64,000 bases of DNA from Gemmatimonadaceae bacterium (GTDB lineage Bacteria; Gemmatimonadota; Gemmatimonadetes; Gemmatimonadales; Gemmatimonadaceae). How positions within the stretch are numbered: position 1 is the stretch's first letter; each line of letters begins with the position of its first letter. The notes beneath the pieces were generated by a model. The model had not been told where the DNA came from and did no database searches. It worked only from the letters and a program-made list of their open reading frames with translations. A program made the position numbers and the translations under genes. The stretch lies in NCBI GenBank assembly GCA_051859245.1, contig JBHYGA010000006.1, positions 32,001 through 96,000 on the forward strand, given 5' to 3'. Positions 18,869-57,612 of this stretch are shown here, one piece after another.

Positions 18869-19411
18869 TCAGACCGTTCGGTTAACGACGAGTCCGCGCG
18901 GCTGCGACGTTGCGGGTGCACCGCCTTCTGCCGCGTAGGTTGTGGGCGTAGTGGGTTCGCCTGACATCACGCGCACCTGCTGCGTGTTGTGGGCGAGCGC
19001 TTCACGCAACAGCTTGCGATTCATTCCCACTTCACGTGAGAGCGTATCGGCAGCCGCTTGCAAACGGACGCGCGCTTCGCGCAGGCGATCGTCGACCTGT
19101 GCGCCAAGTCGCGCTTCGAGATCACGCAGTGGCATATCGGCTGTGCCACCGAGCAGCTCGTTCAGTTGACGACGACGCTGACGCGCCTGGCCAAGCGTGG
19201 CCAGAATGCGGTGCGTTGCGAAGACACTTTCGTCGACGCTGTCGATATCATCAGCGCCAACGGCGCTGCGCTGCCGGCGCATTTGCACGACAAGATCGTC
19301 CAGCAGTCGACGCTCAGTGGAGAGCGCGTCGTGCAGGGCTTCGAGCATGGCCGGCGCGATCTGCGAGTAGGCCATGGAAGCGGGTTCGGCGGTGAGCAGA
19401 GCTGGAGACAT
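18869..19411 (-). CDS. flgN: Flagellar export chaperone FlgN
   Basis: Helical protein between flgJ and flgK, 'NRKLL' motif, C-terminal 'VVNRTV'; TGATG coupling to flgJ. Confidence 0.8.
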   Translation of the reverse strand: MSPALLTAEPASMAYSQIAPAMLEALHDALSTERRLLDDLVVQMRRQRSAVGADDIDSVDESVFATHRILATLGQARQRRRQLNELLGGTADMPLRDLEARLGAQVDDRLREARVRLQAAADTLSREVGMNRKLLREALAHNTQQVRVMSGEPTTPTTYAAEGGAPATSQPRGLVVNRTV

Positions 19412-19785
19412 CAGAGGTCTGGCTGGCTTACGGTATCGGGATGCGATGCAGCGGCTGCTGCTTCGCTGGTGATCGGCGTAACGAGGTGCTGGCTGAGCTG
19501 CCGGTACAACGCCTGCGACAAACCGCGCTCCCAATGCTTGGGAGTCTCGGCAGCAAGGTGCTGATCCATCATCGCGGTAAACATGTCTTCTCCGGCCCCT
19601 CCTGAAACGATTCCTTCCTGCTGCGGAACGGATTCGCGCATAGCCTTGTACAGCTGTTGCACGAACACACCTTCCAGCTGCGTCACCGCCTGTTGCAGCT
19701 TTGCATCACGTGCAGGCTGAGCACCGTTGCCTGGCACGGCGGGCGTTTTAGGCGTAACGGGTGAACTACCGAGGCGATTGATCAT
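19411..19785 (-). CDS. flgJ: FlgJ, rod-binding domain only
   Basis: KLQQAVTQLEGVFVQQLYKAMR...MFTAMMDQ...GLSQALYRQL; 124 aa, no glucosaminidase domain. Confidence 0.88.
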   Translation of the reverse strand: MINRLGSSPVTPKTPAVPGNGAQPARDAKLQQAVTQLEGVFVQQLYKAMRESVPQQEGIVSGGAGEDMFTAMMDQHLAAETPKHWERGLSQALYRQLSQHLVTPITSEAAAAASHPDTVSQPDL

Positions 19786-23746: not shown

Positions 23747-23761
23747 CGGCAAATCATGCCG
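23747..23761. promoter_or_regulatory. Candidate enhancer palindrome CGGCA-N5-TGCCG
   Basis: CGGCAAATCATGCCG, 100 bp upstream of the sigma54 element; variant TGGAAAAATATGCCT at 23709-23723. Confidence 0.6.
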
Positions 23762-31457: not shown

Positions 31458-33092
31458 CTATTTGAAGCTTTGGATCAGGCTCTGCATGGTGAGGCTCCAT
31501 CCGTCCACCAGCACGAACAAGAGCAACTTGAAGGGCAGCGAAATCATCGCCGGAGGCAGCATGAACATGCCCATGGCCATGAGGACGGACGCCACCACCG
31601 CATCGATAATGATGAACGGCAGGTAGATCGCGAATCCGATCTGGAACGCGGTGCGCAGCTCACTGGCCACAAAGGCCGACATGAGCACGTGCAGCGGTAC
31701 GTCATCCGGCGTTTCCGGTTGCTCGATGCGGCTCATCTCCACAAAGGTGCGCAGATCTTTCTCGTTCGTCTGCCGCAGCATGAACTCGCGGAACGGGACG
31801 ACGCCGGTTTTCAGCATCTCCGTTTGTTCGATGCGTCCCTCAAGCCAGGGGCTGATCGCGGTGCGATTGGCTTCCGACAGGGTAGGCGCCATCACGAACC
31901 CGGTGAGCAAGAGCGCGAGGCCCGCCACGAGGTGAGCCGGAGGCGCGCTTTGCGTACCCATCGCCTGCTTGAGAAAATGCAGCACAATCAGGATACGCGT
32001 GAAGCCGGTCATCATGAGTAGCAGCGTTGGCACGAGCGTCATGAGTCCCATCATCAACACGACACCAACGGTACCGTTCAAGCGCAGTCCGCCATCTGGA
32101 CCGTTTCCGACACGCAGGTCGAGCTGGGGCGCCAGACCTGAAACAGCGTCAGCCACCGAGGCCGGCTGCGTCGGATCGGGCTCGGCGACAGTCGCGTCGG
32201 CCGGCCGCGCCGAGTTGCTGGTCGCGGCATTTGCGGCGGGCGCTCCTGCGGTCTGGGTTCCTGCGGTAGCCGCGGCGGCGTTCGTGGCATTGGCCGGCCG
32301 TGCGGCACCGGCCGCTGGTCGCGTGTTGCCAACCGGTGCGACGGTTGGCGCTGCGGGTGTGTTCGGTGCGGGCGGAGTTGGGCGAACGACCGGCGGCTGA
32401 ACCGTGGGTACCGGTGCTCCGCCTGCGGCTGGTGGCGCCTGCGCTCCGGCTCCGAACGGCGACGTGAACTGCGAAAGCACCGCAAACGCCGCGATCGACA
32501 GCAGACGAGTGGACGGTGCGAGCGTCATGGACAGCACGCTGTGCAGATCGCGGTGTGCTGAGCGCGGGGCTGCCGCTACAACAGTCGGCGTTTGCACCAC
32601 GGGCTGCGGCGACGTGACCACGTGTTGGCCGAGCGATGCGTTCGTGGCTTGCGAGAGGGCGCGATCAAATGAAGGTGCTGCAGCGGCGACGTTGGCATTC
32701 GCGCCACGCCGCGCGACCAAGGCGCGCTGCAGCGGTGCGGTAAACGCATTCGTCAATGACTTGGTGAACGCGGCGTGTGCGGTGGCGCTTGACACCATTG
32801 GCATTGGCAACTCGCTGCCGGCCACAATGCGCTGACGGTCGGCTTCGTCAACTTCAAACAGTGTGTGTACGCCACCATCGCCAACGGAGACGGCGAGCAC
32901 TTTCTCACCAACACGCACTACGGCCAGTCCCGACTTGGGGCCAAGTGGCAGTCGTTGCACGATCTCCACTTGCAAGCGCGAACGTCCTGACAGCGCACCA
33001 CCACCCACGCGCTTCAGCGCCCACACCGTCAGTGCGATGAGACCAAGTACAAACACCAGTGCTGCGAGAATTCCGATGCCAGCCGAAAGCAT
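31458..33092 (-). CDS. fliP: FliO-FliP fusion protein
   Basis: N-terminal FliO (TM, then QRLPLGPKSGLAVVRVGEKVLAVSV); C-terminal FliP (MMTGFTRI, SELRTAFQIGF, MGMFMLPP, PFKLLLFVLVDGW); one continuous 544 aa frame. Confidence 0.9.
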   Translation of the reverse strand: MLSAGIGILAALVFVLGLIALTVWALKRVGGGALSGRSRLQVEIVQRLPLGPKSGLAVVRVGEKVLAVSVGDGGVHTLFEVDEADRQRIVAGSELPMPMVSSATAHAAFTKSLTNAFTAPLQRALVARRGANANVAAAAPSFDRALSQATNASLGQHVVTSPQPVVQTPTVVAAAPRSAHRDLHSVLSMTLAPSTRLLSIAAFAVLSQFTSPFGAGAQAPPAAGGAPVPTVQPPVVRPTPPAPNTPAAPTVAPVGNTRPAAGAARPANATNAAAATAGTQTAGAPAANAATSNSARPADATVAEPDPTQPASVADAVSGLAPQLDLRVGNGPDGGLRLNGTVGVVLMMGLMTLVPTLLLMMTGFTRILIVLHFLKQAMGTQSAPPAHLVAGLALLLTGFVMAPTLSEANRTAISPWLEGRIEQTEMLKTGVVPFREFMLRQTNEKDLRTFVEMSRIEQPETPDDVPLHVLMSAFVASELRTAFQIGFAIYLPFIIIDAVVASVLMAMGMFMLPPAMISLPFKLLLFVLVDGWSLTMQSLIQSFK

Positions 33093-35360: not shown

Positions 35361-36140
35361 TTAGAACTTCTTGCTGGCGCCGCGGAGCCAGTAGATCACG
35401 AGCTCGCAGGGCTGCTGCCCGGATACGAGCACGTAGCTGCGAAAGCGGGCTGGCACCTTGATAAACTCGTCGTAGTACTCGATCGCGACCACGTCGTTGG
35501 GTCGCCAGTTCATATCTGGTGGGAATGAGCCGGGCTCCGCCAGCATCGGCGGTTGCCCATTCCAGAGTTCAACGAGGCAGCGACTGGGTCGGGCCATAAT
35601 GCGCCACTCGCGTCCCATGGGGCCGAGTACCATGTTGCGCCGCAGCCCGGGCATGCCCTCGAACATGTCGGCCCACTGATCTGATCGCAGGGAACGCAGG
35701 GTACCGGCGTCGCGGAAATAGCCGAGCCCTGCCTGTCGGCGACATTCGAAGCCTTCGAGCGTCGTGGTGGCGCAGCGATCGGCGTCGGCCATGGCACGAA
35801 CGGTGTCGAGCGTGTTCGAGAACTGGGTCATGACCAGCACCAACCCTTCAGCCATTCCGGGCCTGTAGTTGAAGGACGCACTGAAACTGATATAGCCGAC
35901 TTTGCGGACGCGAATCTCGTACGTGCCGGCTTTCCCCAGCGGAAGTACAAATCGGCCGTCCTGATCAGTGCGGGCGCGGATCGGCGTGTTGGCGATGCTG
36001 ACATCAGCATCAGGTAGCGGTCGACCGAGGGTGTCCACGACGGAGCCGCGGATGGGCTGCGCGTGCGAGATCGCCGGCATGAGAAACGCCAGCATCACGG
36101 CGACAATCGCCAGCGCGGAAACGTTCGACGTGAGACGCAT
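35361..36140 (-). CDS. Secreted protein with carboxypeptidase-regulatory-like domain
   Basis: Signal peptide, IRGSVVDTLGRPLPDADV...RTDQDGRF...VRKVGY, then plug-like 'VVAIEYY...C..VIYWLR'. Confidence 0.8.
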   Translation of the reverse strand: MRLTSNVSALAIVAVMLAFLMPAISHAQPIRGSVVDTLGRPLPDADVSIANTPIRARTDQDGRFVLPLGKAGTYEIRVRKVGYISFSASFNYRPGMAEGLVLVMTQFSNTLDTVRAMADADRCATTTLEGFECRRQAGLGYFRDAGTLRSLRSDQWADMFEGMPGLRRNMVLGPMGREWRIMARPSRCLVELWNGQPPMLAEPGSFPPDMNWRPNDVVAIEYYDEFIKVPARFRSYVLVSGQQPCELVIYWLRGASKKF

Positions 36141-36303
36141 CACAACCGAGTACTCAGATCAGCGGTCGTTGATCCATGCGGCCTCGCGGGCAACCGGTTC
36201 AGCCCGCCGTACGCACTCTCGGTCAGCCGCACTCAACTCCCCATGCCACCGGGAGTGTCGCACGAGCAGCCCACAGGTTCGCCCCCCGCACACAGCCGCT
36301 TCC

Positions 36304-37731
36304 GTGTTTACTCCGCTTCTGCTCGCCGCCGCGCTGGTCGTTGACGCCGACTGCTCGTTGACCCTCTCTCGGCTCGCGACGAAAGTCGTGGCCAACTACG
36401 CTGGCTATCACCTCGAGGTGGTGGGCGCACGTCGTGTTGCGTACGACTCGATGCTTCGCGCACTTCAACCGCGCGCGGCGTCCGCCGCGGTCGACCAATG
36501 CCTTCCGGTGCTACGCAGCTACATCGCCTGGTTCAACGATCCGCACCTCGCGATCATCGAATCCACGAACATTGACAGCGCGGAAACACGACGACGCTCG
36601 GGCAGCATCAGAACAATCGCGTTGACTGAAGCCGAGGTGCTTCGTGGCCTGAGGGCACGCAGCACGATCGATCCAATTGAAGGCATCTGGTATGATGGGT
36701 CGATGCGTCTGGCAATTGTACCGGACCCAGACGCGGCACGCGGCACGTTCGCCGCGGTGGTTGTGGCGAGCGACACGATCACGTTGCCAATTGGTGCTGT
36801 GCGCGGGACCTTCACACGCCAACCTGATTCGACCTACGCGTGGACGCTCCACACGCGCAAGCTGGCGCGTCAATCGGGAACCGCCACGATTCACCGACGA
36901 AGCATGCTGCGGTTATCGCCAGGCATGTGGGGAAAGACCGCGCCGCTCGCGCCAGCCGATACGGGATGGCTTGATCCTGCTGATGTGCACCGTGCGACGC
37001 TTCGTGCGTGGGACGATGTTGTCGTCATCTCGATTCCCTCGCATGACTATGCGTTCAAGGCGCACTTTGACAGCCTGCTCACCGCGAATCGCAGCACGCT
37101 GGCTTCCGCGCGACGTCTGATCGTCGATCTCCGTGGCAACGAGGGCGGTGGATCGCAAATGATTGCGCGACTTCATCCATACCTCGTGGGCGATTCACTA
37201 CGCCGCGACGGATTTGATCAAACGGAGGCCGTGATGTGGTCATCTCCGGATCAGATTGCGTATGCACGCCGTGCATTCGGTGCAGATACGAGCGCGTTCG
37301 TCAGGCGCCTCGTGGCGGCACTGGAAGCGGCTCCCGGCACGCTGGTCCCGATGTACGATTCGTCGGTGCCAGCTCCCATGCCGCGCCCGATCATTCCGAT
37401 TTACGGGCCACGTCGAGTTGGCGTACTGATTGACGGCGGCACCGTCAGCGCGTCGGAAGTGACGGTGCAACTCGCGAAGCGCAGCGGACGTGCGATTGTG
37501 TACGGCGAACGCACGGCCGGTGCACTCGACTATCAGAGCACATCATTCACGCGCTTGTCACCGGACGAAAATCGGTGGCTGCTGTTGTATCCCACGATCA
37601 CTGCGTCAGCCAAACTGCCGGCTGGTGGAATGCGCGGCGTTGGAATTGCGCCTGACGTCAGCGTTCGTTGGTCCATGATTGGCGATCCAATCGCGCACAT
37701 CGCGGAACTGCTGCGCGCGAAGAACGAGTGA
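36304..37731 (+). CDS. S41 family peptidase (secreted)
   Basis: FNDPHL, LIVDLRGNEGG, TVSASE, GERTAG, GIAPDV; GTG start with hydrophobic leader. Confidence 0.85.
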   Translation: MFTPLLLAAALVVDADCSLTLSRLATKVVANYAGYHLEVVGARRVAYDSMLRALQPRAASAAVDQCLPVLRSYIAWFNDPHLAIIESTNIDSAETRRRSGSIRTIALTEAEVLRGLRARSTIDPIEGIWYDGSMRLAIVPDPDAARGTFAAVVVASDTITLPIGAVRGTFTRQPDSTYAWTLHTRKLARQSGTATIHRRSMLRLSPGMWGKTAPLAPADTGWLDPADVHRATLRAWDDVVVISIPSHDYAFKAHFDSLLTANRSTLASARRLIVDLRGNEGGGSQMIARLHPYLVGDSLRRDGFDQTEAVMWSSPDQIAYARRAFGADTSAFVRRLVAALEAAPGTLVPMYDSSVPAPMPRPIIPIYGPRRVGVLIDGGTVSASEVTVQLAKRSGRAIVYGERTAGALDYQSTSFTRLSPDENRWLLLYPTITASAKLPAGGMRGVGIAPDVSVRWSMIGDPIAHIAELLRAKNE

Positions 37732-37831: not shown

Positions 37832-39352
37832 TTACCGCTTCACGTTCATCAGTTCCTGCAGCATTTCATCCGACGTCGACACGACCTTGCCGTTCGCCTG
37901 GAAGCCGCGCTGCGCGACGATCATGCTCGTGAACTCCTGCGCGAGGTCAACGTTCGACATTTCGAGTGCACCGGCCGTCATCTGCGACTGTGAGCCCTCG
38001 AGTGCGAAGCCGAGCACCGCGCTGCCGGAGTTGGCCGACTCCTGATACATGTTGTCACCAACGCGGAGCAAACCAGCCGGGTTGTTGAAGTCGGCGAGCA
38101 CGATCTTGCCCAACGGTGACGTGGTGCCGTTGGTGAAGAAGCCGGTGATCAAGCCGAAGCGGTCGATCGAGAAGTTCTGCAGCGAGCCGGCCGTGTAACC
38201 GTCCTGATCGCGCAGTACGGCCGTTGATGCCGTTGACGCGAACTGCGTGAGACCGTTCACGCCACCAGCAAGCTTGATATCAACCTGCACCGGATTCGCA
38301 CCAGGCACGGCGAAATCAATCGCGGCTGTGATATTCGTAGTCATGACACCAGTCGGGTCGAACGTGAGTGTTCCACCGTTCACGCCCGGGTCCGCCGCGG
38401 TTGGGCTCATGAAGTACGACACTTCAATCGCGGAGTCGGACGGCATGTTGGCCGTGAACGACACACCCGGCGGCGGGCCAGCCGTGAACGACCAGGCAGC
38501 GGGCGATTCGTAGTTCGCGCCGGTCGGGCTCGTGACACGCACATTCTCTGGCAGGATTTCATAGCCAGCGGGCGGCGTTGGCAACTCGATCGCCGTGGGC
38601 GGCGAGTTGGAATCCGTCTCAAATGTCTGACGCGATGCACTCGTAGCTGGATCGAGCTGCCACGACCATTCGTTCGCGCCCGTCTTCCACATCTGAATCT
38701 TCACGTCGTGCTTGGTGCCTTGCGAATCGTACACGGCAATCTGCGTTTCCGTCCACGCCTTTTCATTGGACGGCAGCGCGCGATCCGCCGGATCAAGGAA
38801 GTCGCCCTGAAAGATCGGCGACGACGCATTGAGGTTACCGGCAAGCGTGACTTCGCTCGTGGGACGCGCAGACACTTTCTGTCCGAACGGCAAACGGATG
38901 TCCTGAATACCGTCCTGCAGCAATCCGTTTTCGTACATGCGACCCTGCACCACGAAACCGTTGGTTGGCGACACGAGCTGTCCGAGCGCGTCTACCTGAA
39001 AGTTTCCTGAACGCGTGTAGAAGCTCTGGTTGCCTTTACGCACAACGAACAGTGAGTCACCCTGAATCGCGATGTCGGTGCCAAGACCGGTCGTTTCAAT
39101 GTTGCCCTGATTGAAGATCTGATCGATGGAGCCGATCTGCATACCAAGTCCGATCTGAATCGGATTGATACCACCCTGATCTCCAGGCGGACGGCTCGCG
39201 CCCTGCAGCAGCTGAGCGAAACCTTCTTTGAACGTGACACGGCCTGCCTTAAATGCGACGGTGTTGACGTTTGCGATGTTGTTACCGATGACGTCCATGC
39301 GAACCTGATGATTGCGCAGGCCCGATACACCGGCGAAGAGAGAACGCAGCAT
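37832..39352 (-). CDS. flgE: Flagellar hook protein
   Basis: MDVIGNNIANVNT, YTRSGNF, VYDSQG, LEMSNVDLAQEF, QRGFQAN. Confidence 0.96.
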   Translation of the reverse strand: MLRSLFAGVSGLRNHQVRMDVIGNNIANVNTVAFKAGRVTFKEGFAQLLQGASRPPGDQGGINPIQIGLGMQIGSIDQIFNQGNIETTGLGTDIAIQGDSLFVVRKGNQSFYTRSGNFQVDALGQLVSPTNGFVVQGRMYENGLLQDGIQDIRLPFGQKVSARPTSEVTLAGNLNASSPIFQGDFLDPADRALPSNEKAWTETQIAVYDSQGTKHDVKIQMWKTGANEWSWQLDPATSASRQTFETDSNSPPTAIELPTPPAGYEILPENVRVTSPTGANYESPAAWSFTAGPPPGVSFTANMPSDSAIEVSYFMSPTAADPGVNGGTLTFDPTGVMTTNITAAIDFAVPGANPVQVDIKLAGGVNGLTQFASTASTAVLRDQDGYTAGSLQNFSIDRFGLITGFFTNGTTSPLGKIVLADFNNPAGLLRVGDNMYQESANSGSAVLGFALEGSQSQMTAGALEMSNVDLAQEFTSMIVAQRGFQANGKVVSTSDEMLQELMNVKR

Positions 39353-39388: not shown

Positions 39389-40192
39389 TTAGCTGCGGAT
39401 CTGAAGCAGTGATGAGAACGGAACGCTCATGCGATCGCCGAGCAGCAATGTGGGAACGCCTTGTTCGTAGCGCAGTCCGGTAATACGTCCGCTGGTGTAC
39501 GTCTTGGCGGGGAGCCAGTTGGCCTGAGCGTCCGCCATGTCAAATCGATACGAATACTGACCAGGCTCGAGCGGCGGCGTGATGCCGAAGTCTTCGAGTT
39601 GAAACGACTGCATGCCTTTGCTGACATCGCCGATCACGTAGCTGCCGATTGCTTCACCTTTTGCGTCAACAACCGTGAGACGACCAATGCCTTCCTTCTC
39701 GCCAGTGTCCACGGTGATGGAGCCTTCACCATCGCGATCGACAAACACCTGATCACCCGCGACCACACCAGTGCGCCCGACCGTGTTAATCGCCATGGAC
39801 TGCTCAAGCAGTTTGGCCATTGCATCGCCCTGCGCGATCGTGATTTCACTGAGATCTTCAATCGCGTTGCCCAGCTCGACCTGGCTCTCGGCCACAACCT
39901 TCATGTTCGAGTTGATATCAATGAGCTGCTCAACCTGCGAGAACTGCGCGAGCTGTGCGGCCATTTCCTGGCCGTCCATCGGGTTGAGTGGATCCTGATT
40001 CTTCATCTGCGCCACGAGCAGCTGCAAAAACTCATTGCGGCCAAGCGCGTCGTTTTTCTTGCCAGTACCGGCCTCTTTCGGCGGCGTGGCCTCGGCCGGC
40101 GCCTGCACCGGCGCGTTCGGATCTGCCGCTGTGTTGTTAAAGCGCGGTGCAATCGCGGTTGGCGTGCTGATCGCGCGCGTGATGTCAAACAT
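39389..40192 (-). CDS. flgD: Hook capping protein
   Basis: EFLQLLVAQMKNQDPLNP, AQLAQFSQVEQ. Confidence 0.95.
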   Translation of the reverse strand: MFDITRAISTPTAIAPRFNNTAADPNAPVQAPAEATPPKEAGTGKKNDALGRNEFLQLLVAQMKNQDPLNPMDGQEMAAQLAQFSQVEQLIDINSNMKVVAESQVELGNAIEDLSEITIAQGDAMAKLLEQSMAINTVGRTGVVAGDQVFVDRDGEGSITVDTGEKEGIGRLTVVDAKGEAIGSYVIGDVSKGMQSFQLEDFGITPPLEPGQYSYRFDMADAQANWLPAKTYTSGRITGLRYEQGVPTLLLGDRMSVPFSSLLQIRS

Positions 40193-42282
40193 CAGTGATT
40201 CTCCTGCCGGTTGTTGCGCCGGCCCTGCTGGTGATTGCTCTCCTGCTCGTCGCGCGCATCGCGGCCCGGCTGCTGCTTGGCCGCTGGACGATCCTTCGTG
40301 CCCGAGTCGTGCGTGTGCTGCTGGCCCATCTGCTGTCCGTGCGACGCACCCGCGGTCTTGAGCACTTCTGAACGGTCAGCCATTGCCTGACGCATGGCGT
40401 CTCCTTCGCTGCTGCGTGCAGTCTGCTGGACGCGCAGCGGTTCTGTTTCCAGGCCGTGTCGGCCGAGTGCGTCTTGCAGGTCAGCCGTTTGCATGCGCAA
40501 CCGATCGGCGAGCGCCGCATTGTTGGTGCTGATCTGCGCGCCAACCGCGCCACCGCGCAGGTTCACGCGAATCTCTTCAGCGCCCGTTGGCGTGTCGATC
40601 TTCATGGTCAGCGACGAAACCGACGGCGCCGGCGCGTCTTCACGCAATACAGCGATCGCTTCCGCACGTGCGGCGGCAGTACTGCCGGCCGGTGCCTGCA
40701 CACGCGGTGCGCCGGCGTCGAGTACACGATCAACGCTTGCGTTGAGCGCACCGATGGCACTACCCGCATCGGCTACACTTGCCGCGCGATCAAGTCCACG
40801 CGCGCGTTCGCCGCTATTGCCGCGCGACTCACGGTCTGATGCGCTGCTCGTGCCACCCTGACGGGCGCGCCCCTGCGATGCAATCTCCGAAATGCGCGCA
40901 CCAAATGTGGACGCGGTGTCAGACGGGCGTGCGTTGTCGAACAGCGGTACGTTCTCGGCGTCGGCGCGTAGCGATCCCGCGCGCACGCCATTCCCCGGTC
41001 GAGCTACCTGTGCGACTTGAGCTACCTGCGCCACGTGTGCCACACGCGCAACGGATGCGACCTGTGCGATGCCGCCCATATTGGCGACGCGTGTGCTCTG
41101 TTCACGAACGCCATCTCGCAGCGAGTCATCGCCATGCAAGCCGTTCGCTGATCCGCGCAACTCCAGATGTCCAGGATCGCGCATGCCGAGCGTCTTTACG
41201 CCTTCTTCCGCGGCAATCGCGTGCAGGCGCGCATACGCGACCGGATGATTCCACTTGCCATCAATGATGACGTCGGCGGCTTCACCTGACTCGTGCGCAC
41301 TGTTGGTTGTCCAGGTGACGATCGGTCCTGGAGCTGTGCGCCCCTGCGCATACAGATGTTCCTGACGCTCCCCGGAACGCACGGTCTCGACCACCTGCAC
41401 ATCGTGTCCGAACTCGTCGCGCATGCGATCGACAATCCGGTCAAGGCGCGCACGGAACTCCGGTGCCAGACCCTCAATATCACGAACCGGCGTTGCCACG
41501 TTCTCGGCTGATTTTGCGACGGCGTTGGCGAACTCTGGACGCGCGGTCTCCGCGATGACGCGGCCACGCGGCGTGCCGGCGACATCAAGCAAAGCGTCGA
41601 GCGCCGCACGGACATCGGCCGCGCGCTGATCATTGCGCGCCATCAACTCACCGCGTCCACGGCCAGCTGCCCGCTCAGCAAGGGCCAGCAGATCCGCGTT
41701 GGCCATTCCCGTATTGTTCAACTCGCCCTCGTTCTGTGCGCCAGCGAGGGCTGCGGCCAACTCGGCGGCGCGACCCTTGGCGAGTCCGTTCACACCGCGT
41801 GCTGACTCACGTTCTCCAATAGAGGCTGCGGACCGATTCTCGACATTGTTGGAAACCAGAATCGCCCGTGCGGCACGCATCGCGTCGGACTGCAGCGCTC
41901 GCGCCAGTGCGCGCTGATCCGCGTCGGGCATCGAGGACGGTGTCTCAGCTTCCGACGTTGGCTGCTCGGATTCGCTTTCGTTGTCTACGGTGAGGACCTG
42001 CACGTCCGCATCGCTCTCTTCAGCGTTCACGTCGAGCGAGAGCGTGTCTGGTGCGGCATTGGCCGGGGGCTTCGGCGCTGTTCCGCCGAGCAACGCGAGC
42101 AGCAGCGAGAAGTCAGGCGGTGTGTGTTCGCGGTCCGCCTTGTCCGTACGCGACGTTTCATCGGCGCCCTCATTGCGCGACGCTCGTTCAGCCGGTTGCG
42201 GCCGATCGGTGTGTCGGGCACGAATGACCGAGGGTCCGGCAGAAGTTGCCGAAACGTTTGATGTAAACGGCAACAAGCTCAC
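40192..42282 (-). CDS. fliK: FliK-like hook-length control protein with internal M15 peptidase domain
   Basis: Canonical fliK position directly upstream of flgD; low-complexity N-terminus; C-terminal T3S4-like 'IRVNLRGGAVGAQIST...LQDALGRHGL' with Q-rich tail; central RSGERQ..LYAQGRT..SAHESGEAAD..DPGHLE. Confidence 0.8.
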   Translation of the reverse strand: MSLLPFTSNVSATSAGPSVIRARHTDRPQPAERASRNEGADETSRTDKADREHTPPDFSLLLALLGGTAPKPPANAAPDTLSLDVNAEESDADVQVLTVDNESESEQPTSEAETPSSMPDADQRALARALQSDAMRAARAILVSNNVENRSAASIGERESARGVNGLAKGRAAELAAALAGAQNEGELNNTGMANADLLALAERAAGRGRGELMARNDQRAADVRAALDALLDVAGTPRGRVIAETARPEFANAVAKSAENVATPVRDIEGLAPEFRARLDRIVDRMRDEFGHDVQVVETVRSGERQEHLYAQGRTAPGPIVTWTTNSAHESGEAADVIIDGKWNHPVAYARLHAIAAEEGVKTLGMRDPGHLELRGSANGLHGDDSLRDGVREQSTRVANMGGIAQVASVARVAHVAQVAQVAQVARPGNGVRAGSLRADAENVPLFDNARPSDTASTFGARISEIASQGRARQGGTSSASDRESRGNSGERARGLDRAASVADAGSAIGALNASVDRVLDAGAPRVQAPAGSTAAARAEAIAVLREDAPAPSVSSLTMKIDTPTGAEEIRVNLRGGAVGAQISTNNAALADRLRMQTADLQDALGRHGLETEPLRVQQTARSSEGDAMRQAMADRSEVLKTAGASHGQQMGQQHTHDSGTKDRPAAKQQPGRDARDEQESNHQQGRRNNRQENH

Positions 42283-42902
42283 GGTGTGGTGCTCGCTGGT
42301 GTTGTGGTTGCGGCCTTCGTAAGCGAAGCCGCGCGGGACGCGGGGAGCGCGGTCAACACGGCCGCTGCCTGGCGATCTCCCATCATGGAAAGAATCGTGC
42401 GGATGTCTTTGTCCGACATTTGCTCCAATACCTTGGCTGCATCTTTGGATGACATCGCGCTGAAAATCTTGGCGAGTCGACGTTCCGGCAGCACTTCGGC
42501 CACGGGCACCGCGGGTGCAGTTGCAGCCGGTGTGCCCTTCGCAGACGCGGTGACTTCCGGTGTCAGTGTTGCAGCGGGCGCGAGAGGTGGTGACACCGAA
42601 GGCGTGACGCCGGCCGTCTGCTGATTTCGCTCTGACACGAGCGCACGAATCGAATCTGCTGGAGTACTGAGTGCGTTGAGTGCAGAGTCGGCGCTCGCAC
42701 TATCGGCCTGCGCTTGCAGCGCGGCCTCTGCGAGTGCGGCGCTATCGGCCATGATGCTATCCATCCGGACCTTCGCGATCGAATCCTGCACCACAACATG
42801 CGCCGCGTACGTCGTACGCGAATGCATGACGGAGTAGCCAGCACTTCCGGCCAATCCGACCACGATCGCGAGTATAGCGGGGAGAATAGCGGTCTTGAGC
42901 AT
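42279..42902 (-). CDS. MotE/FlbB-like protein (MgtE N-terminal-like domain)
   Basis: N-terminal TM, RLAKIFSAMSSKDAAKVLEQM...ILSMM..RQAAAVL; between fliJ and fliK. Confidence 0.8.
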   Translation of the reverse strand: MLKTAILPAILAIVVGLAGSAGYSVMHSRTTYAAHVVVQDSIAKVRMDSIMADSAALAEAALQAQADSASADSALNALSTPADSIRALVSERNQQTAGVTPSVSPPLAPAATLTPEVTASAKGTPAATAPAVPVAEVLPERRLAKIFSAMSSKDAAKVLEQMSDKDIRTILSMMGDRQAAAVLTALPASRAASLTKAATTTPASTTP

Positions 42903-48836: not shown

Positions 48837-49427
48837 TCAGATGTCGAGCGCGGCGCGCAACATGGATTTCGTGGTCTGAAACACCGTCGCGTTGGCTTCA
48901 TACAAGCGCTTCGCGTCGAGCAGATTCACGAGTTCCTGTGTGGGATCGATGTCGGGATACCGCACGTAGCCGTTGGTGTCGGCGTCCGGATGACCGGGTT
49001 CGTACACGAGCTTTCCGGCGTCTGCCGGTCCCATTTCCGTTCCGGCAACTCGCACGCCATGCAGGCCGTCGTCCGGTGGATTCATGGGAATCGGAATCGC
49101 GCGATTCACATCGCCAATGGCCGGCAGCTGAAACGGCTGCGCACCGAACGGTCCGCTGGCCGTGGGCAGCGTTCCGTTGATCGCCGGCTGGTTGCCATTG
49201 CGCGTGTTCTCGCGCGTGGCGGTTTCAATGACTGTCGTGCGACGACGGTACGGTCCGCCTTCCGCCGTACGCGTCACGTCAGCGTTTGCAATGTTCTGGG
49301 CGATCGTTTCCATGCGCGCGCGCTGCGCTGACAACCCGCTCGCCGAAATGCTCAGCGAGCGAAAGTGTGGGCGAGGCGGCTGTACTCCGGCCGCAGGCAA
49401 CAGACCGAGACGACGTGGGTCAGTCAT
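48837..49427 (-). CDS. flgC: Proximal rod protein FlgC
   Basis: SASGLSAQRARM..IAQNIANA, PYRRR, YEPGHPDAD..GYV.YP, YEAN. Confidence 0.95.
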   Translation of the reverse strand: MTDPRRLGLLPAAGVQPPRPHFRSLSISASGLSAQRARMETIAQNIANADVTRTAEGGPYRRRTTVIETATRENTRNGNQPAINGTLPTASGPFGAQPFQLPAIGDVNRAIPIPMNPPDDGLHGVRVAGTEMGPADAGKLVYEPGHPDADTNGYVRYPDIDPTQELVNLLDAKRLYEANATVFQTTKSMLRAALDI

Positions 49428-49723
49428 CAGGTGCCCTTGATCGCGGTGCGAATGCTCTGGTACGTGCGCTCGAGCAGCTTGGCGGTAGTCAGAAACCGCA
49501 GCTGCTCATCCGCCAGGTCCATCATTTCCTGCTCGACGTCTACCGGATTGGCTTCGGCCAGTTCGGCGTCGCCCTCACCGGCCTTGAGCGCAAACCCGTC
49601 GCTATTGCCAAGTGAGGCTTTGGCCACGCGGTCGCTGATCGCACGCGACCGGGCAACACTCTGGTCGAGTGCCCCTCGCAGCGGCGACGCATTGGAAACG
49701 CGATCAATAAATCCGAAGAGCAT
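49427..49723 (-). CDS. flgB: Proximal rod protein FlgB (short, divergent)
   Basis: First gene before flgC; C-terminus VDVEQEMMDLADEQLRF...IRTAIKG. Confidence 0.78.
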   Translation of the reverse strand: MLFGFIDRVSNASPLRGALDQSVARSRAISDRVAKASLGNSDGFALKAGEGDAELAEANPVDVEQEMMDLADEQLRFLTTAKLLERTYQSIRTAIKGT

Positions 49724-49767
49724 TTGTGTAGCCTCGTGGAACGGCGTGAGTGTCCACGAGTTACAAA

Positions 49768-49783
49768 AGCAATGCTTGGGCCA
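49768..49783 (-). promoter_or_regulatory. sigma54 promoter of the flgB operon
   Basis: Minus strand TGGCCCAAGCATTGCT (GG-N10-GC); IHF-like TAAGTGCTTGTAT at 49824-49836. Confidence 0.85.
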
Positions 49784-49882
49784 CAAATCTGACGGGTCTG
49801 ATTCAGACTGTGCAGAAGTAGTCTAAGTGCTTGTATTTAAAGGTTTTTGACCTTCCATATCAGCCCGGACATGTGGTTCGAA

Positions 49883-51450: not shown

Positions 51451-53250
51451 ATGTGTATCCGCTGGCCGTGCCGTAGTGCGTTGTTGGCCAGCGGTTACCT
51501 GCTGCTTGCCGCCTGCAGCGGGAGCGACGCGGTTGATCCCGGCGCAGCGCCGAGCGCCGTCGTTGTTACGCCGGCCGCTCAAAACATCTCGTCGCTTGGT
51601 GTCACCGCGCGATTGAGCGCGGAAGTGCGTAGCGTCAACGGTGCGGTGCTTTCCAGCCGCGCGATTACGTGGACGCGGAAAGGCAGCGGCGCAACGGCGG
51701 TGAGTGACAGTGGCGTCGTGACCGTTCTCGCGAACGGTGTAGACACCATCACGGCAACGAGCGGATCGCTTACGGGCACGGCGGTCATCACCGTGAATCA
51801 AGTGGCCGCGAGCATCACGCTCACGCCGGCGCCATCGAACATTTCGGTGCTCGGCGCGTCGCAACAGTTGAGCGCGAGCGTGGTCGACGCGAACGGGCGT
51901 TTTCTCCCGTTGGCGGTGGCAACGTGGACTTCTTCCAACAGCGCGAGTTTGCCGATCACCGCTGATGGCGTAGTAACGGCTGCTCGGCCCGGCGCGAGCG
52001 TGATCACGGCCACGTTTGCTGGCGTGTCGGCGACGCGCGACATGACCGCAACGCTGACGTCACCGGTGGGCGGCCCCATCCTTGGTGCAACCGTGCCGTG
52101 CGCTGGTGGCATGGCTGGCCCGTTCCCCTGCGAGAATGTGGATCTGCTCGCGTTCCTGCCGGTGTCTGGCATGGGCGGCGGTCCAGGCGTGGACCTGAAT
52201 GATCTGTGGGGATGGACGGACGAGACGAGCGGCAAAGAGTACGTGATCGTCATGCGTCGTGATGGCACCGCGTTCGTAGACGTGAGTGATCCGCGCAATC
52301 CGATTTTTCTGGGGAGCCTGCCGATCACACCCGGTGCGACGCCGAACATATGGCATGACGTGAAGGTGTATCAGGGATATGCGTTCATTGTGGCGGACGC
52401 GGCCGGACCACATGGCATGCAGGTGTTCGATTTGCGCCGGCTTCGTGAACACGCGGGTTTCCCGCGCACATTCACCCCGGATGCGACGTATACGAACATC
52501 AACAGCGCGCACAACATCGCGATCAATGAGGCGACCGGCTTCGCGTATATCGTAGGCGCAAGCGGCGGTGGTCAAACGTGCGGCGGCGGCTTGCACATGG
52601 TCGACATTCGCTCACCAGGTGCGCCAGTGTTTGCGGGTTGCTTCGCGGATCCGATGACGGGCCGAGTGTCAACCGGCTACACGCACGACGTGCAATGTGT
52701 ACGCTATCAGGGACCGGACACGCGATACACCGGTCGCGAAATCTGCCTCGGCAGCAATGAAACACACTTGAGCGTTGCCGACGTGACGGAAAAGCAGACG
52801 CCCGTAGCCATCAGCCGCGCGAGTTATCCGCAGGTTGGTTACACGCATCAGGGGTGGTTCACACAGGATCAGCGATACTTTCTCGTGAATGACGAGACAG
52901 ACGAGACACGTTTTGGTCTGCGAACGCGAACGCTGATCTGGGACGTGGCCGATCTCGAAGATCCCGTGCTGGTAGGCGAGTATCTGGGACCGAACCCGGC
53001 GTCCGATCACAACCACTACATTCGTGATTCGCGCATGTATGCGTCCACGTACCAGTTTGGGCTTCGTGTCATCGATGTGAGCAACCCGAAAGCGCCATCG
53101 CAGATTGGCTACTTTGATACGGCGCCGAACTTTCCCAACACGCCGGGCTTTGGCGGGTCGTGGAGCAACTATCCGTACTTCAAGAGCGGCATCATTGTGA
53201 TGACCAGCCGCACCGAAGGTTTCTTCGTGTTGCGCCTGCGGCCGAACTAA
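51451..53250 (+). CDS. Lipoprotein with Ig-like (Big_2) domains and choice-of-anchor B / LVIVD beta-propeller
   Basis: Lipobox LAA/C, two Ig-like repeats, NDLWGWTD, WHDVKVY, SAHNI, YTHDVQC, YTHQGW, WSNYPYF. Confidence 0.85.
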   Translation: MCIRWPCRSALLASGYLLLAACSGSDAVDPGAAPSAVVVTPAAQNISSLGVTARLSAEVRSVNGAVLSSRAITWTRKGSGATAVSDSGVVTVLANGVDTITATSGSLTGTAVITVNQVAASITLTPAPSNISVLGASQQLSASVVDANGRFLPLAVATWTSSNSASLPITADGVVTAARPGASVITATFAGVSATRDMTATLTSPVGGPILGATVPCAGGMAGPFPCENVDLLAFLPVSGMGGGPGVDLNDLWGWTDETSGKEYVIVMRRDGTAFVDVSDPRNPIFLGSLPITPGATPNIWHDVKVYQGYAFIVADAAGPHGMQVFDLRRLREHAGFPRTFTPDATYTNINSAHNIAINEATGFAYIVGASGGGQTCGGGLHMVDIRSPGAPVFAGCFADPMTGRVSTGYTHDVQCVRYQGPDTRYTGREICLGSNETHLSVADVTEKQTPVAISRASYPQVGYTHQGWFTQDQRYFLVNDETDETRFGLRTRTLIWDVADLEDPVLVGEYLGPNPASDHNHYIRDSRMYASTYQFGLRVIDVSNPKAPSQIGYFDTAPNFPNTPGFGGSWSNYPYFKSGIIVMTSRTEGFFVLRLRPN

Positions 53251-54779
53251 GCACGCGCTACGCGCAGCACTTCGTCGAGCGTGGTCACCCCCGCACGCAC
53301 CAAACGCAGGGCATCGTCGCGCAGCGTGCGCATGCCGTTCCCAATCGCGATCGCGCGCAGTTCTTCCGACCCGCGACGGGCCTGTGTCTCAAGGCGCAGC
53401 TCGTTGTCCATCACGAGCAGTTCGTATACGCCCTGACGCCCGCGGTATCCGGTATCCCGACAGTACTCACAACCGGTTCCTTTCCACACGGTCTCGAGTC
53501 CCAGTGCGGCGAGATCAAACGAACGCGCGGCTCGTGCGTCTGGTGTGGTGGGTGTCTTGCACTTGGGGCAAATCACGCGCACCAGTCGCTGCGCCAGCAC
53601 CGCGTCTACAGTGCTGGCCACGAGGTACGAGGCAACACCGAGATCCAGCAAACGCGTGAGTGCCGTGGGCGCATCGTTGGTGTGCAGCGTGGACAGGACA
53701 AGATGGCCGGTGAGCGCAGCTTGCGTGGCAATCTGCGCTGTTTCTGCGTCGCGAATTTCGCCCACCAGAATGATGTCCGGGTCCTGCCGCAGCAGTGAGC
53801 GCAGCGCTGCGGCAAAGGTCACGCCCACTTTTTCATTAACGGGTACCTGCGGCACGCCGGGCAATTCGTACTCAACCGGATCTTCAACCGTGAGAATTTT
53901 CTCACGACCGGTGCGCAGCAGCTCAATGGCGCCGTACAACGTAGTGGTTTTTCCGGAGCCGGTTGGGCCGGTCACGAGTACGATGCCGTGCGGACGCGAG
54001 ATACTTTCCCGAAACAGTTCGAGTGTATCGTCGGCCATGCCCATGTCAGTGAGCGAGATGCGACCGCGCTCCTTGTCGAGCAGTCGCAGCACCACACTCT
54101 CACCGCGCAGCGTGGGCGCCGTTGAGACACGCACGTCTACCTGACGATTCTGCAAGCGCAGCCGAATGCGTCCGTCCTGTGGCATACGGCGCTCCGCAAT
54201 ATCCAGCTCGGCCATGATCTTGAGGCGGCTGACAATCGCTGCCGTGAGATGCGGCGGGGGCGACGGTGCGGGCTGGAGCACACCGTCAACGCGGTAGCGA
54301 ACATGCAAACCGTCGGCGTAGCCCTCAAGATGAACATCGGACGCACGCGCGTCGAGCGCTTCAATGATCAGCAGGTTCACGAGACGCACCACTGGCGCTT
54401 CGTTCGCCAGATGCAGCAAATCATCCAACGGAATTTCATCAATACCCAGCGCGCGACTCTCGGACGACATGCCGGCGATCATGCCTTCTGCTGTTGTCGC
54501 ATCCTGCGCGTAGACGCGACGAATCGTGCTGCGAACGTCGTGCTCCGTGAATCGCACCAGTGCCACGGACGCGTTGAACTGCAGGCGCAGCTCGTCTAAT
54601 GCGAGCGGTTGCACACGATCGAGCCACGTGGCAACCGTGAGTTCGCCGGCGTGCAGCTTGAGCGGCAACACCGCGTGCTGCTCAAGCCAGTCTGCCGACA
54701 ACACACCGGACATCCGCTCGACTTCGAGCAGCTCACTCGCCGAGTGTTCCGCCGGGCCCGCGCCGTTGACTGCGGTCAT
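53247..54779 (-). CDS. gspE: Type II secretion ATPase
   Basis: ASDVHLE, GPTGSGKTTT, TVEDPVE, LRQDPD, GHLVLSTLHTN, tetracysteine motif. Confidence 0.95.
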   Translation of the reverse strand: MTAVNGAGPAEHSASELLEVERMSGVLSADWLEQHAVLPLKLHAGELTVATWLDRVQPLALDELRLQFNASVALVRFTEHDVRSTIRRVYAQDATTAEGMIAGMSSESRALGIDEIPLDDLLHLANEAPVVRLVNLLIIEALDARASDVHLEGYADGLHVRYRVDGVLQPAPSPPPHLTAAIVSRLKIMAELDIAERRMPQDGRIRLRLQNRQVDVRVSTAPTLRGESVVLRLLDKERGRISLTDMGMADDTLELFRESISRPHGIVLVTGPTGSGKTTTLYGAIELLRTGREKILTVEDPVEYELPGVPQVPVNEKVGVTFAAALRSLLRQDPDIILVGEIRDAETAQIATQAALTGHLVLSTLHTNDAPTALTRLLDLGVASYLVASTVDAVLAQRLVRVICPKCKTPTTPDARAARSFDLAALGLETVWKGTGCEYCRDTGYRGRQGVYELLVMDNELRLETQARRGSEELRAIAIGNGMRTLRDDALRLVRAGVTTLDEVLRVARA

Positions 54780-56488: not shown

Positions 56489-56503
56489 AGTTCGGTACCG
56501 CGT

Positions 56504-57007
56504 TTAAGTGGGGTTCGCATTGATTGCGAACCGCTCGCCGGACACAGTGGAGAACTCCACCACGCCGCGCTTGATCGACCGCACGGTGAAATCACCAACC
56601 TGGTCTCCCACACGCACGATCACGGTGGGTGCGCCGTTGAGCGAGCACATGGCGAAGGTTCGATTGCCCGTGCCAACAACGGTGCCCAGCACGAGCAGTT
56701 GTGACACGTCAACTGGCTCTGCTTCAACGTAGGTGTCCTCATTGCCAGGCAGTCGATATCTGGTCACGGGCGGGCTACGATCCGGCGAGAACAGATTGTC
56801 TTCGACCACCGCACTCACATTGAGTGCCTGCGCGGTTTGCCTGGCGGCCAACGCTGCGGCCGTATTGAACTGCGGTGGTGCGGCGTCGGGTACAGGCTCG
56901 ATGCGCAGTGCCACCACGAACGACCAGACCGCGAATGACGCGGCCAGAATCAGCGCGCCAATCGCTGCCTGCACGCGCTGCTGCTTCAATACATCGCGGC
57001 TCATCAT
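56504..57007 (-). CDS. GspC/PilP-like assembly protein
   Basis: N-terminal TM, NLFSPDR, LLVLGTV...VRVGDQV.DFTVRSI (HR-domain-like). Confidence 0.65.
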   Translation of the reverse strand: MMSRDVLKQQRVQAAIGALILAASFAVWSFVVALRIEPVPDAAPPQFNTAAALAARQTAQALNVSAVVEDNLFSPDRSPPVTRYRLPGNEDTYVEAEPVDVSQLLVLGTVVGTGNRTFAMCSLNGAPTVIVRVGDQVGDFTVRSIKRGVVEFSTVSGERFAINANPT

Positions 57008-57612
57008 TGCGCGCCTCCCGCAGGGCGAGGCGCGTCTTCAGGAATCGCGTACCCAACAATCGACGCCGAGATTGAAACGGGTTCGATGCCGTCTTCCGTG
57101 ACCGGACCCTGGGTGACCGACACATCCAGTCGCTCGATGCGCACCAGCTTGTCGCCGCGCTCCAGGGCCTGCAGAAAGTTGAGCAGTCCCTGCAAGTCTG
57201 ACTCGGCACGCAGCGCCACGTGCAGCGTTCGCACGCCCGCCTCGCCAACGGTTGCGGGACGCGTCGTTGCGTTCTGCAACCAGACATCATGCTCGCGAGC
57301 CACAGCGCCGAGGTGCGAGACCAACTCGGCCGTGGCCATGACATCATCACGTCCGGCAAAGAGCCGCGGCGACATCGCTCGCATGAGTGAGTCGGCGAGC
57401 GCCTGCATGCCGGGGTTGCGTTGCGCGGCCGTGACGGCCGCACGTTCACGTGCCAGTGCGGCGCGTTCAACGCTCAGAAAGTCGCGCGACTCTTCCAGCG
57501 ACGAGCGAAACGGCTTCACGCCCCAGATGAAAAACAGCGCGGGTGCCAGAATCAACGCGCCGAGCGTGAGCGCGCGTTTGTCGCGCGCTGACATGGCCGT
57601 GAGCCGACTCAT
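57004..57612 (-). CDS. gspM: GspM/PilO-like protein
   Basis: MSARDKR, TM, coiled coil, GLLNFLQALE..LVRIERL. Confidence 0.78.
   Translation of the reverse strand: MSRLTAMSARDKRALTLGALILAPALFFIWGVKPFRSSLEESRDFLSVERAALARERAAVTAAQRNPGMQALADSLMRAMSPRLFAGRDDVMATAELVSHLGAVAREHDVWLQNATTRPATVGEAGVRTLHVALRAESDLQGLLNFLQALERGDKLVRIERLDVSVTQGPVTEDGIEPVSISASIVGYAIPEDAPRPAGGAQ

Follow-up and report, generated by a model that had tools for sequence, protein, structure and literature searches.

It is already known that a substrate of the flagellar type III secretion system (T3SS), FlgJ, can carry a wall hydrolase, and that an endopeptidase of the Peptidase_M15_4 (M15_4) family, TagX, serves an envelope machine as its wall-opener. 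As set out in PMC13584718, three classes can be told apart among the FlgJ homologs, in which the protein is fused to a hydrolase, fused to a peptidase or of a single domain, and those of the last class are presumed to use an independent enzyme, examples of which are PleA in Caulobacter and SltF in Rhodobacter. TagX is described as a Ply500-like pfam13539 protein that cleaves the L-Ala-D-Glu bond and is needed for a type VI secretion system (T6SS) to assemble through the wall (PMC5061870). FliK, the hook-length ruler and export switch of the flagellum, is reported from Salmonella to be secreted and to be exported in both rod and hook assembly, its export being highest in mutants whose structures stop short of the outer membrane (PMC13344023). 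In this paper, we describe a FliK of different make, which is encoded in a 64,000-nucleotide stretch of the genome of a Gemmatimonadaceae bacterium (assembly GCA_051859245.1, contig JBHYGA010000006.1, forward-strand positions 32,001 to 96,000; hereafter the window, in whose own numbering all positions are given), and in which a predicted zinc peptidase domain of the M15 type lies between the ruler and the C-terminal switch domain (T3S4, Flg_hook in Pfam). We refer to the gene as fliK-M15 and to its product as FliK-M15. We know of no characterised FliK that has an enzymatic domain, and no published FliK with a peptidase domain was found in the full-text literature, the coverage of which is thin for subscription journals; the ruler as the carrier of an enzyme is thus what is new here.

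The reading that we favour, and regard as reasonably probable, is that FliK-M15 is a ruler and switch protein whose M15_4 domain, catalytically intact and placed between the ruler and the T3S4 domain, opens the wall for the rod. An initial annotation, made from the letters of the sequence, had pointed to a 696-amino-acid (aa) open reading frame (ORF) at 40192..42282 and had proposed that it was a FliK carrying an M15 endopeptidase. The ORF is present as described, as a single uninterrupted frame of 696 codons with a GTG start in the ORF list and its translation; no strand had been given, and it lies on the minus strand. The strings then quoted, namely LAPEFRARL, VVETVRSGERQEHLYAQGRTAPGPIVT, SAHESGEAADV and DPGHLE, all occur in the translation, and the four motifs by which the peptidase had been recognised are in place (R302-S-x3-Q307; L310-YAQGRT316; S328-x-H330-x2-G333-x-A335-x-D337; D369-x2-H372). 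Residues L272 to E374 are encoded by positions 41161-41469, inside the interval 41158-41480 to which the domain had been allotted.

The assignment of this domain to M15 rests on profile-profile and fold evidence, because the curated M15 hidden Markov models (HMMs) remain below their thresholds. When a test piece of 145 aa (aa 251-395 of the ORF) was compared with the PDB sequences by phmmer, it matched the endolysins Ply500 (2vo9, E=0.0015) and LysB4 (6akv, E=0.0016) over a common stretch of the form RS..Q..LYAQGRT.PG.IVT...S.H..G.A.D, and a profile built from 54 members of the family reached E-values of 3.3e-10 and 4e-9 against the same two proteins, while matching no FliK or T3S4 structure among the PDB sequences. 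Alignment of the profiles of A1 and A3, the latter consisting of 33 stand-alone M15 relatives, most of them with a precomputed PF13539 assignment, by hhalign gave a probability of 99.8% (E=2.1e-30) over 119 columns at 42% identity. The AlphaFold model of aa 251-395, computed with a 54-sequence alignment, has a predicted local distance difference test score (pLDDT) of 87 and a predicted template modelling score of 0.79, and Foldseek found nine PDB matches to it at E<=0.001, all of which are M15 proteins (Ply500, LysB4, LysECD7, ChiX, LdcB, VanXYc and the RB49 peptidase among them); the match to Ply500 has E=7.7e-7 and a template modelling score of 0.61, and VanX, VanY and Hedgehog domains follow as weaker matches. 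The M15 fold proposed at the outset is thus also what the structure prediction returns, with the L-Ala-D-Glu endopeptidases Ply500, LysB4, LysECD7 and ChiX, of which ChiX is from Serratia, at the top. Furthermore, a tblastn search of phage genomes returned six records, the best of which are genes annotated as L-alanyl-D-glutamate endopeptidase or endolysin at 36-48% identity (37-48% for those annotated as the endopeptidase), with E-values down to 1e-11. We accept on these sequence and model comparisons that the domain belongs to the M15/LAS superfamily and is closest to Peptidase_M15_4 (M15C-like), where it appears to form a divergent clade of its own, since the M15 models of Pfam and NCBIfam miss their thresholds on it. 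The FliK-embedded domains indeed stand apart from the stand-alone enzymes: among proteins of 79-254 aa, the scores are 140-156 bits for what look like pieces of fused proteins and 65 bits for the best stand-alone relative after them. The short relatives at 140-156 bits were considered as possible stand-alone peptidases and set aside because of that appearance: all but one lie on contigs of about 1-10 kb, and for the remaining one no contig is recorded.

The residues on which catalysis would depend were then examined in an alignment of 244 proteins, which comprise the query and all distinct matches of the searches, with P0002 dropped as identical to the query. As these proteins were retrieved by their likeness to the query, the presence of the domain in them is given by construction, which does not hold for the invariance of single residues. 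R302, R306, Q307, G314, R315, S328 and H330 are found in all 244 proteins, D337, D369 and H372 in 243 each, Q313 in 241 and E374 in 237, and a D-x-x-H-(F/L)-E motif is common to the fused domains and the stand-alone enzymes. The claim that the His/Asp/His zinc ligands are intact is consistent with these counts (H330 in 244/244, D337 and H372 in 243/244 each); the roles of ligands and general base are presumed, by analogy with Ply500 and with TagX as described in PMC5061870. The domain also differs from the rest of the protein in how strictly it is kept. When the proteins of 80 related loci are compared with that of the window, the median identity amounts to 63% for the M15 core, 49% for the T3S4 core, 32% for the linker and 29% for the N-terminal arm, and the corresponding medians of other flagellar proteins are 83% for FliI, 80% for FlgE, 80% for FliG, 45% for FlgD and 43% for FliJ; hence no other part of FliK-M15 is conserved as well as the peptidase core, which also exceeds FlgD and FliJ.

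That the ORF is the FliK of this flagellum is a conclusion on which several lines agree, namely its slot in the operon, its Flg_hook domain, the protein clusters nearest to its C-terminal part and, more weakly, the core of its structural model. The position had been called that of fliK, and the Pfam assignments of the neighbours bear this out: in the direction of transcription the order is flgC, fliE, fliF, fliG, fliH, fliI, fliJ, a gene for a 207-aa protein with an MgtE_N/FliG-like domain, fliK-M15, flgD and flgE. The start of fliK-M15 overlaps the stop of the gene upstream (GTGA) and its stop overlaps the start of flgD (TGATG), so that the gene is translationally coupled on both sides. The 207-aa protein between FliJ and FliK has an MgtE_N match and a weak likeness to FliG_N/FliG_M, and we take it to be the counterpart of YlxF of the Bacillus fla/che operon. 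The FliK-like C-terminus noticed initially is a Flg_hook domain (Pfam PF02120) at aa 551-622, which scores 31.3 bits against a gathering score of 29.8 (E=1.8e-7). Flg_hook also matches at E<=0.01 in 43 of 53 full-length relatives (54 rows of alignment A1 were scanned, one of them a peptidase piece that cannot match), and the 30 named ESM Atlas clusters that are closest to the C-terminal part all carry it. In the AlphaFold model of the C-terminal region, the pLDDT is 74 overall and 86-95 in the core, where the elements follow in the order beta-beta-beta-alpha-beta, and the modelled aa 621-650 have low values (block means 60, 58 and 51). A separate true fliK was also looked for, and no second Flg_hook protein is present among the scanned ORFs of the 64-kb window.

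The N-terminal region could serve as T3SS signal and ruler. It is rich in Ala, Ser, Arg and Pro, is of low complexity, has no cysteine and contains the string DFSLLLALLGG; a composition and hydropathy test found no Sec-type hydrophobic segment, the maximum hydropathy score (KD19) in the first 70 aa being 0.76. Cysteine is absent from the whole of FliK-M15, and likewise from 158 of 173 full-length-like relatives. Near residue 55, alignments A1 and A2 share a consensus FxxLLALLA, which may resemble a motif near the N-terminus of enterobacterial FliK. The linker between the peptidase and the switch bears a tripeptide repeat, (V/I-A-x)n, runs of which with at least three units occur in 165 of the 173 full-length-like relatives (n = 3 to 10); in the alignments its positions show a conservation of 90% or more, and it might provide the ruler with a stiff spacer or with a place for docking. 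Recent slippage of the DNA was considered as a source of the repeat and rejected, because no DNA tandem repeat is found at the site by TRF.

In the genomes examined, the fusion is kept throughout the phylum Gemmatimonadota. A search of 1.84 billion representative proteins with the 145-aa domain yielded 1734 matches at E<=0.001, 535 at E<=1e-10 and 322 at E<=1e-30; in the best 150 of the 1734 matches, which were examined, almost all proteins are 400-1000 aa long and have the domain in a central position. With a locally built C-terminal profile, both domains were found in 227 of the 244 relatives, with the peptidase always first, and the median lengths of the N-terminal arm, the linker and the tail are 227, 122 and 57 aa, respectively; in 17 proteins no C-terminal match was obtained, and of these, which range from 163 to 648 aa, 15 do not exceed 516 aa. 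In the ESM Atlas the protein falls among three clusters whose members of known taxonomy are mostly Gemmatimonadota, one of them automatically named 'M15 family metallopeptidase' and another with Flg_hook on 22% of its members. At the level of genomes, with one genome per species, 475 stretches matched the search pattern and 364 of them encode a relative; the best 80 of these 364 were examined, and 77 of the 80 are labelled Gemmatimonadota, of which 76 are Gemmatimonadaceae, Gemmatimonas, Gemmatimonadales or Gemmatimonadota and one is a Longimicrobium, from a second class of the phylum. Both domains lie in the same ORF in 78 of the 80, the exceptions being L043, at a contig edge, and L061, with two ORFs. 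The gene order is also maintained, with the ylxF-like gene (72 loci), fliJ (71) and fliI (69) upstream and flgD (77) and flgE (68) downstream; the eight loci without a ylxF-like gene begin at most about 1.1 kb before the match, and the three without flgD end at most about 1.1 kb after it. The fusion is thus by no means unique to the present assembly, a point that the initial annotation had wished to see checked: of the 364 genome loci, the 80 best were examined and 78 of them have the fusion, the synteny being the same wherever the flank suffices.

A few of these relatives deserve separate mention. In locus L061 (10001-10800), from a metagenome-assembled genome of Gemmatimonas, the peptidase and the switch are in two ORFs; the cause may be a frameshift, an error in sequencing or a real separation of the two. 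Locus L019 (CALQGY020000005.1) is labelled Candidatus Kuenenia stuttgartiensis (Planctomycetota) and has a full fliG-to-flgE block of the Gemmatimonadota type; its contig has probably been mis-binned, as we suspect because the gene order is the same and the domain is 63% identical. Seven matches of the C-terminal search shorter than 382 aa were considered as candidates for an unfused FliK, and none of them is convincing as a complete gene: of the five that were read, two begin with MRDPGHLE in the peptidase motif and three in the linker or the switch domain. The seven are not taken as evidence of an unfused FliK, since each of them either lies on a contig whose length is between 1 and 18 kb or has none on record.

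The FlgJ of the window, a protein of 124 aa, has the Rod-binding domain (PF10135) and no glucosaminidase domain, peptidase domain or other significant Pfam family, so that the muramidase said to be missing from FlgJ is indeed absent from it within the window. Nor is there any lytic transglycosylase, GH73, M23 or amidase family among the scanned ORFs of the window as judged by Pfam, and the fliK-M15 ORF has no match to Rod-binding PF10135, that is, it is not a FlgJ, though it may work like the hydrolase half of one. The organism falls in the single-domain FlgJ class, and the only wall enzyme found in its flagellar cluster is inside FliK. The single-domain FlgJ implies an internal need for a wall-cutting activity. 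The suggestion that the fusion co-occurs with a short FlgJ holds in this window and goes no further, as the 10-kb flanks of the related loci stop short of flgJ.

If these pieces belong together, the course of events might be as follows; we infer it as far as export by the T3SS of this organism, the activity of the enzyme, the bond that it cuts and its part in the penetration of the rod are concerned. As an early substrate of the rod/hook class, FliK-M15 would pass in an unfolded state out of the cytoplasm by the type III export gate of the flagellum, a route that we propose because the protein lacks a Sec signal. As long as the growing rod has not passed the peptidoglycan, the exported copies would be set free at its tip into the periplasm, where the M15 domain would fold, bind zinc and cut peptide stems, most likely at the L-Ala-D-Glu bond. 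The local opening of the wall would let the rod, and perhaps the P-ring, pass, which would be a job beyond a single-domain FlgJ. Once the outer membrane has been crossed, the same protein would act as the hook ruler, and its T3S4 domain would finally flip the export switch, with which FliK export and the delivery of lytic activity would end. Both the export route and its timing have an experimental precedent in the Salmonella FliK, as far as PMC13344023 describes it. A bolder version of this scheme, in which the hook ruler of the Gemmatimonadota doubles as the flagellum's dedicated enzyme for opening the wall, without which the rod could not pass, and has its delivery limited by its own switch, is one we put forward tentatively and consider the less probable part of the proposal. 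Delivery of the enzyme would be confined to the rod/hook window because the protein's own switch domain ends the export of early substrates, and would stop of its own accord upon completion of the hook. We know of no flagellar or injectisome ruler in which a dangerous enzyme is timed from within in this way.

Several observations weigh against the preferred reading. Salmonella FlgJ catalytic mutants are reported still to be flagellate, the hydrolase activity enhancing assembly without being required for it, and for B. subtilis it is reported that a dedicated enzyme is not needed (both in PMC13584718); as dedicated hydrolysis is dispensable in Salmonella and reportedly in B. subtilis, the role of the domain could be a gain in efficiency, not a requirement. 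LAS domains can keep the zinc site without a known peptidase role, as the presence of Hedgehog among the fold matches recalls, and export, zinc binding, catalysis and bond specificity are extrapolated from other proteins. An L-Ala-D-Glu peptidase that is still inside the cell might encounter the precursors of the wall and would thus have to be restrained until its export. No such restraint or mask was identified in FliK-M15; full-length TagX is reported to be inactive (PMC5061870), which hints that masking may be possible. The co-occurrence with a short FlgJ is a single case, that of this window, and hydrolases may be encoded elsewhere in the genome. On the side of domain assignment, the HMM scan proposed by the initial annotation was answered in one half, for Flg_hook, which is above its gathering score at 31.3 bits, and failed in the other, for Peptidase_M15_4/VanY: on the 145-aa piece VanY reached 11.8 bits against a cut-off of 25 (E=0.21) and PF13539 did not match, Pfam had no M15 match at threshold on the whole ORF and NCBIfam none for the whole protein, and at E<=0.01 the 54 scanned rows of A1 gave VanY in two and Peptidase_M15_3 in one. 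The Foldseek matches of the switch domain are also weak, with none at E<=0.001; the switch domain of PscP (5cuk) is at the top with E=0.018 and a probability of 0.99, and the C-terminal domain of Salmonella FliK (2rrl) ranks twelfth with E=0.11.

Of the other explanations, the one nearest to ours lets the M15 domain be active in some different remodelling linked to the flagellum, such as making room for the P-ring, the anchoring of the stator (MotB) or greater efficiency, where it would be helpful but not required. We think this unlikely though clearly worth keeping in mind, since the sequence evidence for an active enzyme fits it equally well, the genes motAB, flgH and flgI lie in the same cluster as fliK-M15, and the hydrolase of Salmonella FlgJ likewise enhances assembly without being required (PMC13584718). 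Against it, a strongly selected role can be argued because the domain has 63% identity compared with 49% for the switch and is retained in 78 of 80 loci, and delivery at the rod tip fits the passage of the rod best. Alternatively, the domain might not be catalytic at all, but serve as a peptidoglycan-binding module or as a knob, spacer or anchor of the ruler, with a zinc site kept for stability as in Hedgehog. The Hedgehog N-terminal domains among the fold matches would agree with this, and so would the report that the N-terminal domain, linker and C-terminal domain of Salmonella FliK all matter in length control (PMC6972891); yet the conservation extends beyond the metal ligands to R302, R306, Q307, Q313, R315, S328 and D369, as it does in the stand-alone enzymes, and we hold a non-catalytic domain to be improbable.

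It is more improbable still that the enzyme is aimed outward, FliK released in the growth of the hook attacking the walls of neighbouring Gram-positive cells. The closest structures and phage matches do act on such walls (Ply500, LysB4 and the endolysins of Lysinibacillus phages), and the FliK of Salmonella is described as a secreted protein (PMC13344023), but in all genomes examined the domain belongs to the core flagellar operon, nothing like an immunity or targeting module came to light, and the short FlgJ provides an internal need. Under the ruler model, moreover, few FliK molecules are exported per flagellum, which we count against an outward attack. About as poorly placed, or slightly worse, is the idea that the ORF is an M15 peptidase with a T3S4-like module and that the real FliK is encoded elsewhere in the genome. 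Flg_hook does lie just above its cut-off (31.3 against 29.8 bits) and the T3S4 fold match is weak, but the gene occupies the exact fliK slot between the ylxF-like gene and flgD/flgE, Flg_hook recurs in 43/53 relatives and 30/30 Atlas clusters, and there is no other Flg_hook among the ORFs of a window that holds most of the flagellar genes. Finally, the fusion could in principle be an artefact of misassembly or of two genes read as one, for which the separate ORFs of L061 are the sole support found. The frame is uninterrupted, 78 of the best 80 species genomes and 227 of 244 database proteins share the architecture, L043 is cut by a contig end, and the five short candidates that were read begin in the M15 motif, the linker or the switch domain, so that we regard an artefact as barely conceivable.

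The coordinates of the features discussed are collected in the following table.

Features of the fliK-M15 locus, in the numbering of the window
Feature	Position	Strand	Basis or remark
fliK-M15 ORF	40192..42282	-	N-terminal low-complexity region, M15 domain, repeat-bearing linker, T3S4 (Flg_hook), polar tail
N-terminal region, aa 1-265, presumed T3SS export signal and ruler segment	41488..42282	-	composition, hydropathy
M15/LAS zinc peptidase core, aa 272-375, Peptidase_M15_4-like, presumed L-Ala-D-Glu endopeptidase	41158..41469	-	hhalign, Foldseek
H330 codon, presumed first zinc ligand	41293..41295	-	aligns with the His of Ply500 'SNHNYGVAVD'
D337 codon, presumed second zinc ligand	41272..41274	-	aligns with the Ply500 Asp (phmmer)
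D369-P-G-H372, presumed general base (D369) and third zinc ligand (H372)	41167..41178	-	conserved; D-x-P-H-F-E equivalent in stand-alone M15_4
Tripeptide repeat (V/I-A-x)8, aa 405-428, IAQVASVARVAHVAQVAQVAQVAR	40999..41070	-	linker between peptidase and switch domains
T3S4 / Flg_hook domain, FliK substrate-specificity switch, aa 551-622	40417..40632	-	Pfam PF02120
C-terminal polar tail, aa 626-696, Gln/Arg/Gly/His-rich	40195..40407	-	composition
ylxF-like gene, 207 aa, MgtE_N / FliG-like domain	42279..42902	-	Pfam; upstream of and coupled to fliK-M15
flgD (hook cap)	39389..40192	-	Pfam FlgD, E=8e-24; immediately downstream of fliK-M15
flgE (hook protein)	37832..39352	-	Pfam Flg_bbr_C, FlgE_D2 and D1 domains
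Single-domain flgJ, 124 aa, rod-binding only	19411..19785	-	Pfam PF10135, E=4.5e-13; after flgI, before flgN and flgK

The window holds a nearly complete flagellar regulon, at about 14.6 to 49.8 kb according to Pfam, which in addition to the genes named above includes motAB, flgK, flgN, flgI, flgH, flgA, flgG, flgF, fliA, flhG and flhF as well as flhA, flhB, fliR, fliQ, fliP/O, fliN, fliM and fliL. Between flgE and fliL the cluster is broken by a CarboxypepD_reg gene (35361-36143, minus strand) and a gene for an S41 C-terminal-processing peptidase (35968-37731, plus strand). These two genes were considered as parts of the system and rejected, being found in one of 44 related loci that have enough downstream sequence; that one is the closest relative, L001, and the pair looks like a lineage-specific insertion. 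Matches to FliO (aa 24-90) and FliP (aa 348-539), about 250 aa apart, lie in one 544-aa ORF (31458-33092, minus strand), which is either a FliO-FliP fusion or a FliP that starts at an internal codon. An apparent fusion of FliQ and FliR was rejected, FliQ being a separate ORF in another frame. Three minus-strand ORFs of the cluster, at 16362-17207, 23754-24359 and 49427-49786, have no flagellar Pfam match at E<=0.1, and occupy the slots of the expected flgL, of an unknown gene after fliA and of flgB, respectively. An EAL and HDOD protein (13221-14555, plus strand) adjoins motA/motB, and might link motor control to cyclic di-GMP. Past the flagellar region, at 53247-63917 on the minus strand, lies a cluster resembling those of type II secretion systems and type IV pili, with a T2SSE ATPase, a secretin, a PilN-like protein, T2SSK, pseudopilins, T2SSF and T2SSG.

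How the wall is crossed in organisms whose FlgJ has no hydrolase has been answered in few lineages, and there by separate lytic transglycosylases, and recent work, as presented in PMC13584718, questions the need for any dedicated enzyme. Here, a whole phylum keeps a peptidase in the ruler, and keeps it better than the ruler's own switch domain. If the domain acts as we propose, the use of M15_4 L,D-endopeptidases as wall-openers would extend from the T6SS (TagX) to the flagellum, and T3SS rulers would be seen to bear cargo domains in nature, as the engineered FliK-Bla fusions do in the laboratory. As both functions would reside in a single gene, there is a clean genetic handle on the question, in that point mutants in four residues should separate the enzymatic role from that in length control. 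Among cultured Gemmatimonas, the type strain G. aurantiaca T-27 is flagellated. The FliK identity of many such proteins is currently overlooked, and their names in the databases are inconsistent ('hypothetical protein', 'M15 family metallopeptidase', 'CwlK', 'YcbK').

Compared with the known systems, FliK-M15 shares with the FliK proteins of Salmonella enterica and E. coli the slot beside flgD/flgE, the C-terminal Flg_hook/T3S4 domain, the low-complexity N-terminus without a Sec signal and the polar C-terminal tail. It differs from the FliK of Salmonella, which is described in PMC6972891 as consisting of FliKN (residues 1-207) and a C-terminal domain, in having 696 aa and in that a predicted zinc peptidase core of 104 aa and the (V/I-A-x)n repeat separate the ruler from the switch. 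The peptidase itself has the fold of Ply500, LysB4 and ChiX (Foldseek E=7.7e-7 to 1.3e-5) and the motifs of the M15C endopeptidases (R..RQ..LYAQGRT, S-x-H..G-x-A-x-D and D-x-x-H), but these are phage endolysins or stand-alone wall enzymes, among which CwlK is counted by name, after source annotations and PMC5061870. TagX of the Acinetobacter T6SS belongs to the same peptidase family, has a Ply500-like active site, has been shown by experiment to cleave L-Ala-D-Glu, with release of GlcNAc-MurNAc-L-Ala, and, as described in PMC5061870, serves a trans-envelope machine that passes through the producer's own wall; unlike FliK-M15, it is a membrane-anchored stand-alone protein of the T6SS, and neither a secreted substrate nor a ruler.

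Among the flagellar solutions, the peptidase of the peptidase-fused FlgJ is of the M23/M37 type and differs in this from the M15_4 domain of FliK-M15, and SltF is exported by Sec. Peptidase-fused FlgJ, as defined in PMC13584718, resembles FliK-M15 in that a peptidase, and not a glycosidase, is borne by a flagellar export substrate, but its partner is FlgJ where that of the present domain is FliK. SltF of Rhodobacter, PleA of Caulobacter and BB0259 of Borrelia likewise supply a single-domain FlgJ with a hydrolase from outside, but they are described as independent lytic transglycosylases, neither fused to a T3SS substrate nor peptidases (PMC13584718; PMC8517470). The closest functional analogue, as far as analogy allows, is the dual-domain FlgJ of the beta- and gamma-proteobacteria, which, as an early substrate of the flagellar T3SS, takes a peptidoglycan hydrolase to the rod (PMC13584718); there the carrier is the rod cap and the enzyme a glycosidase of the glycan strand, whereas in FliK-M15 the carrier would be the ruler and the enzyme a metallopeptidase of the stem peptide.

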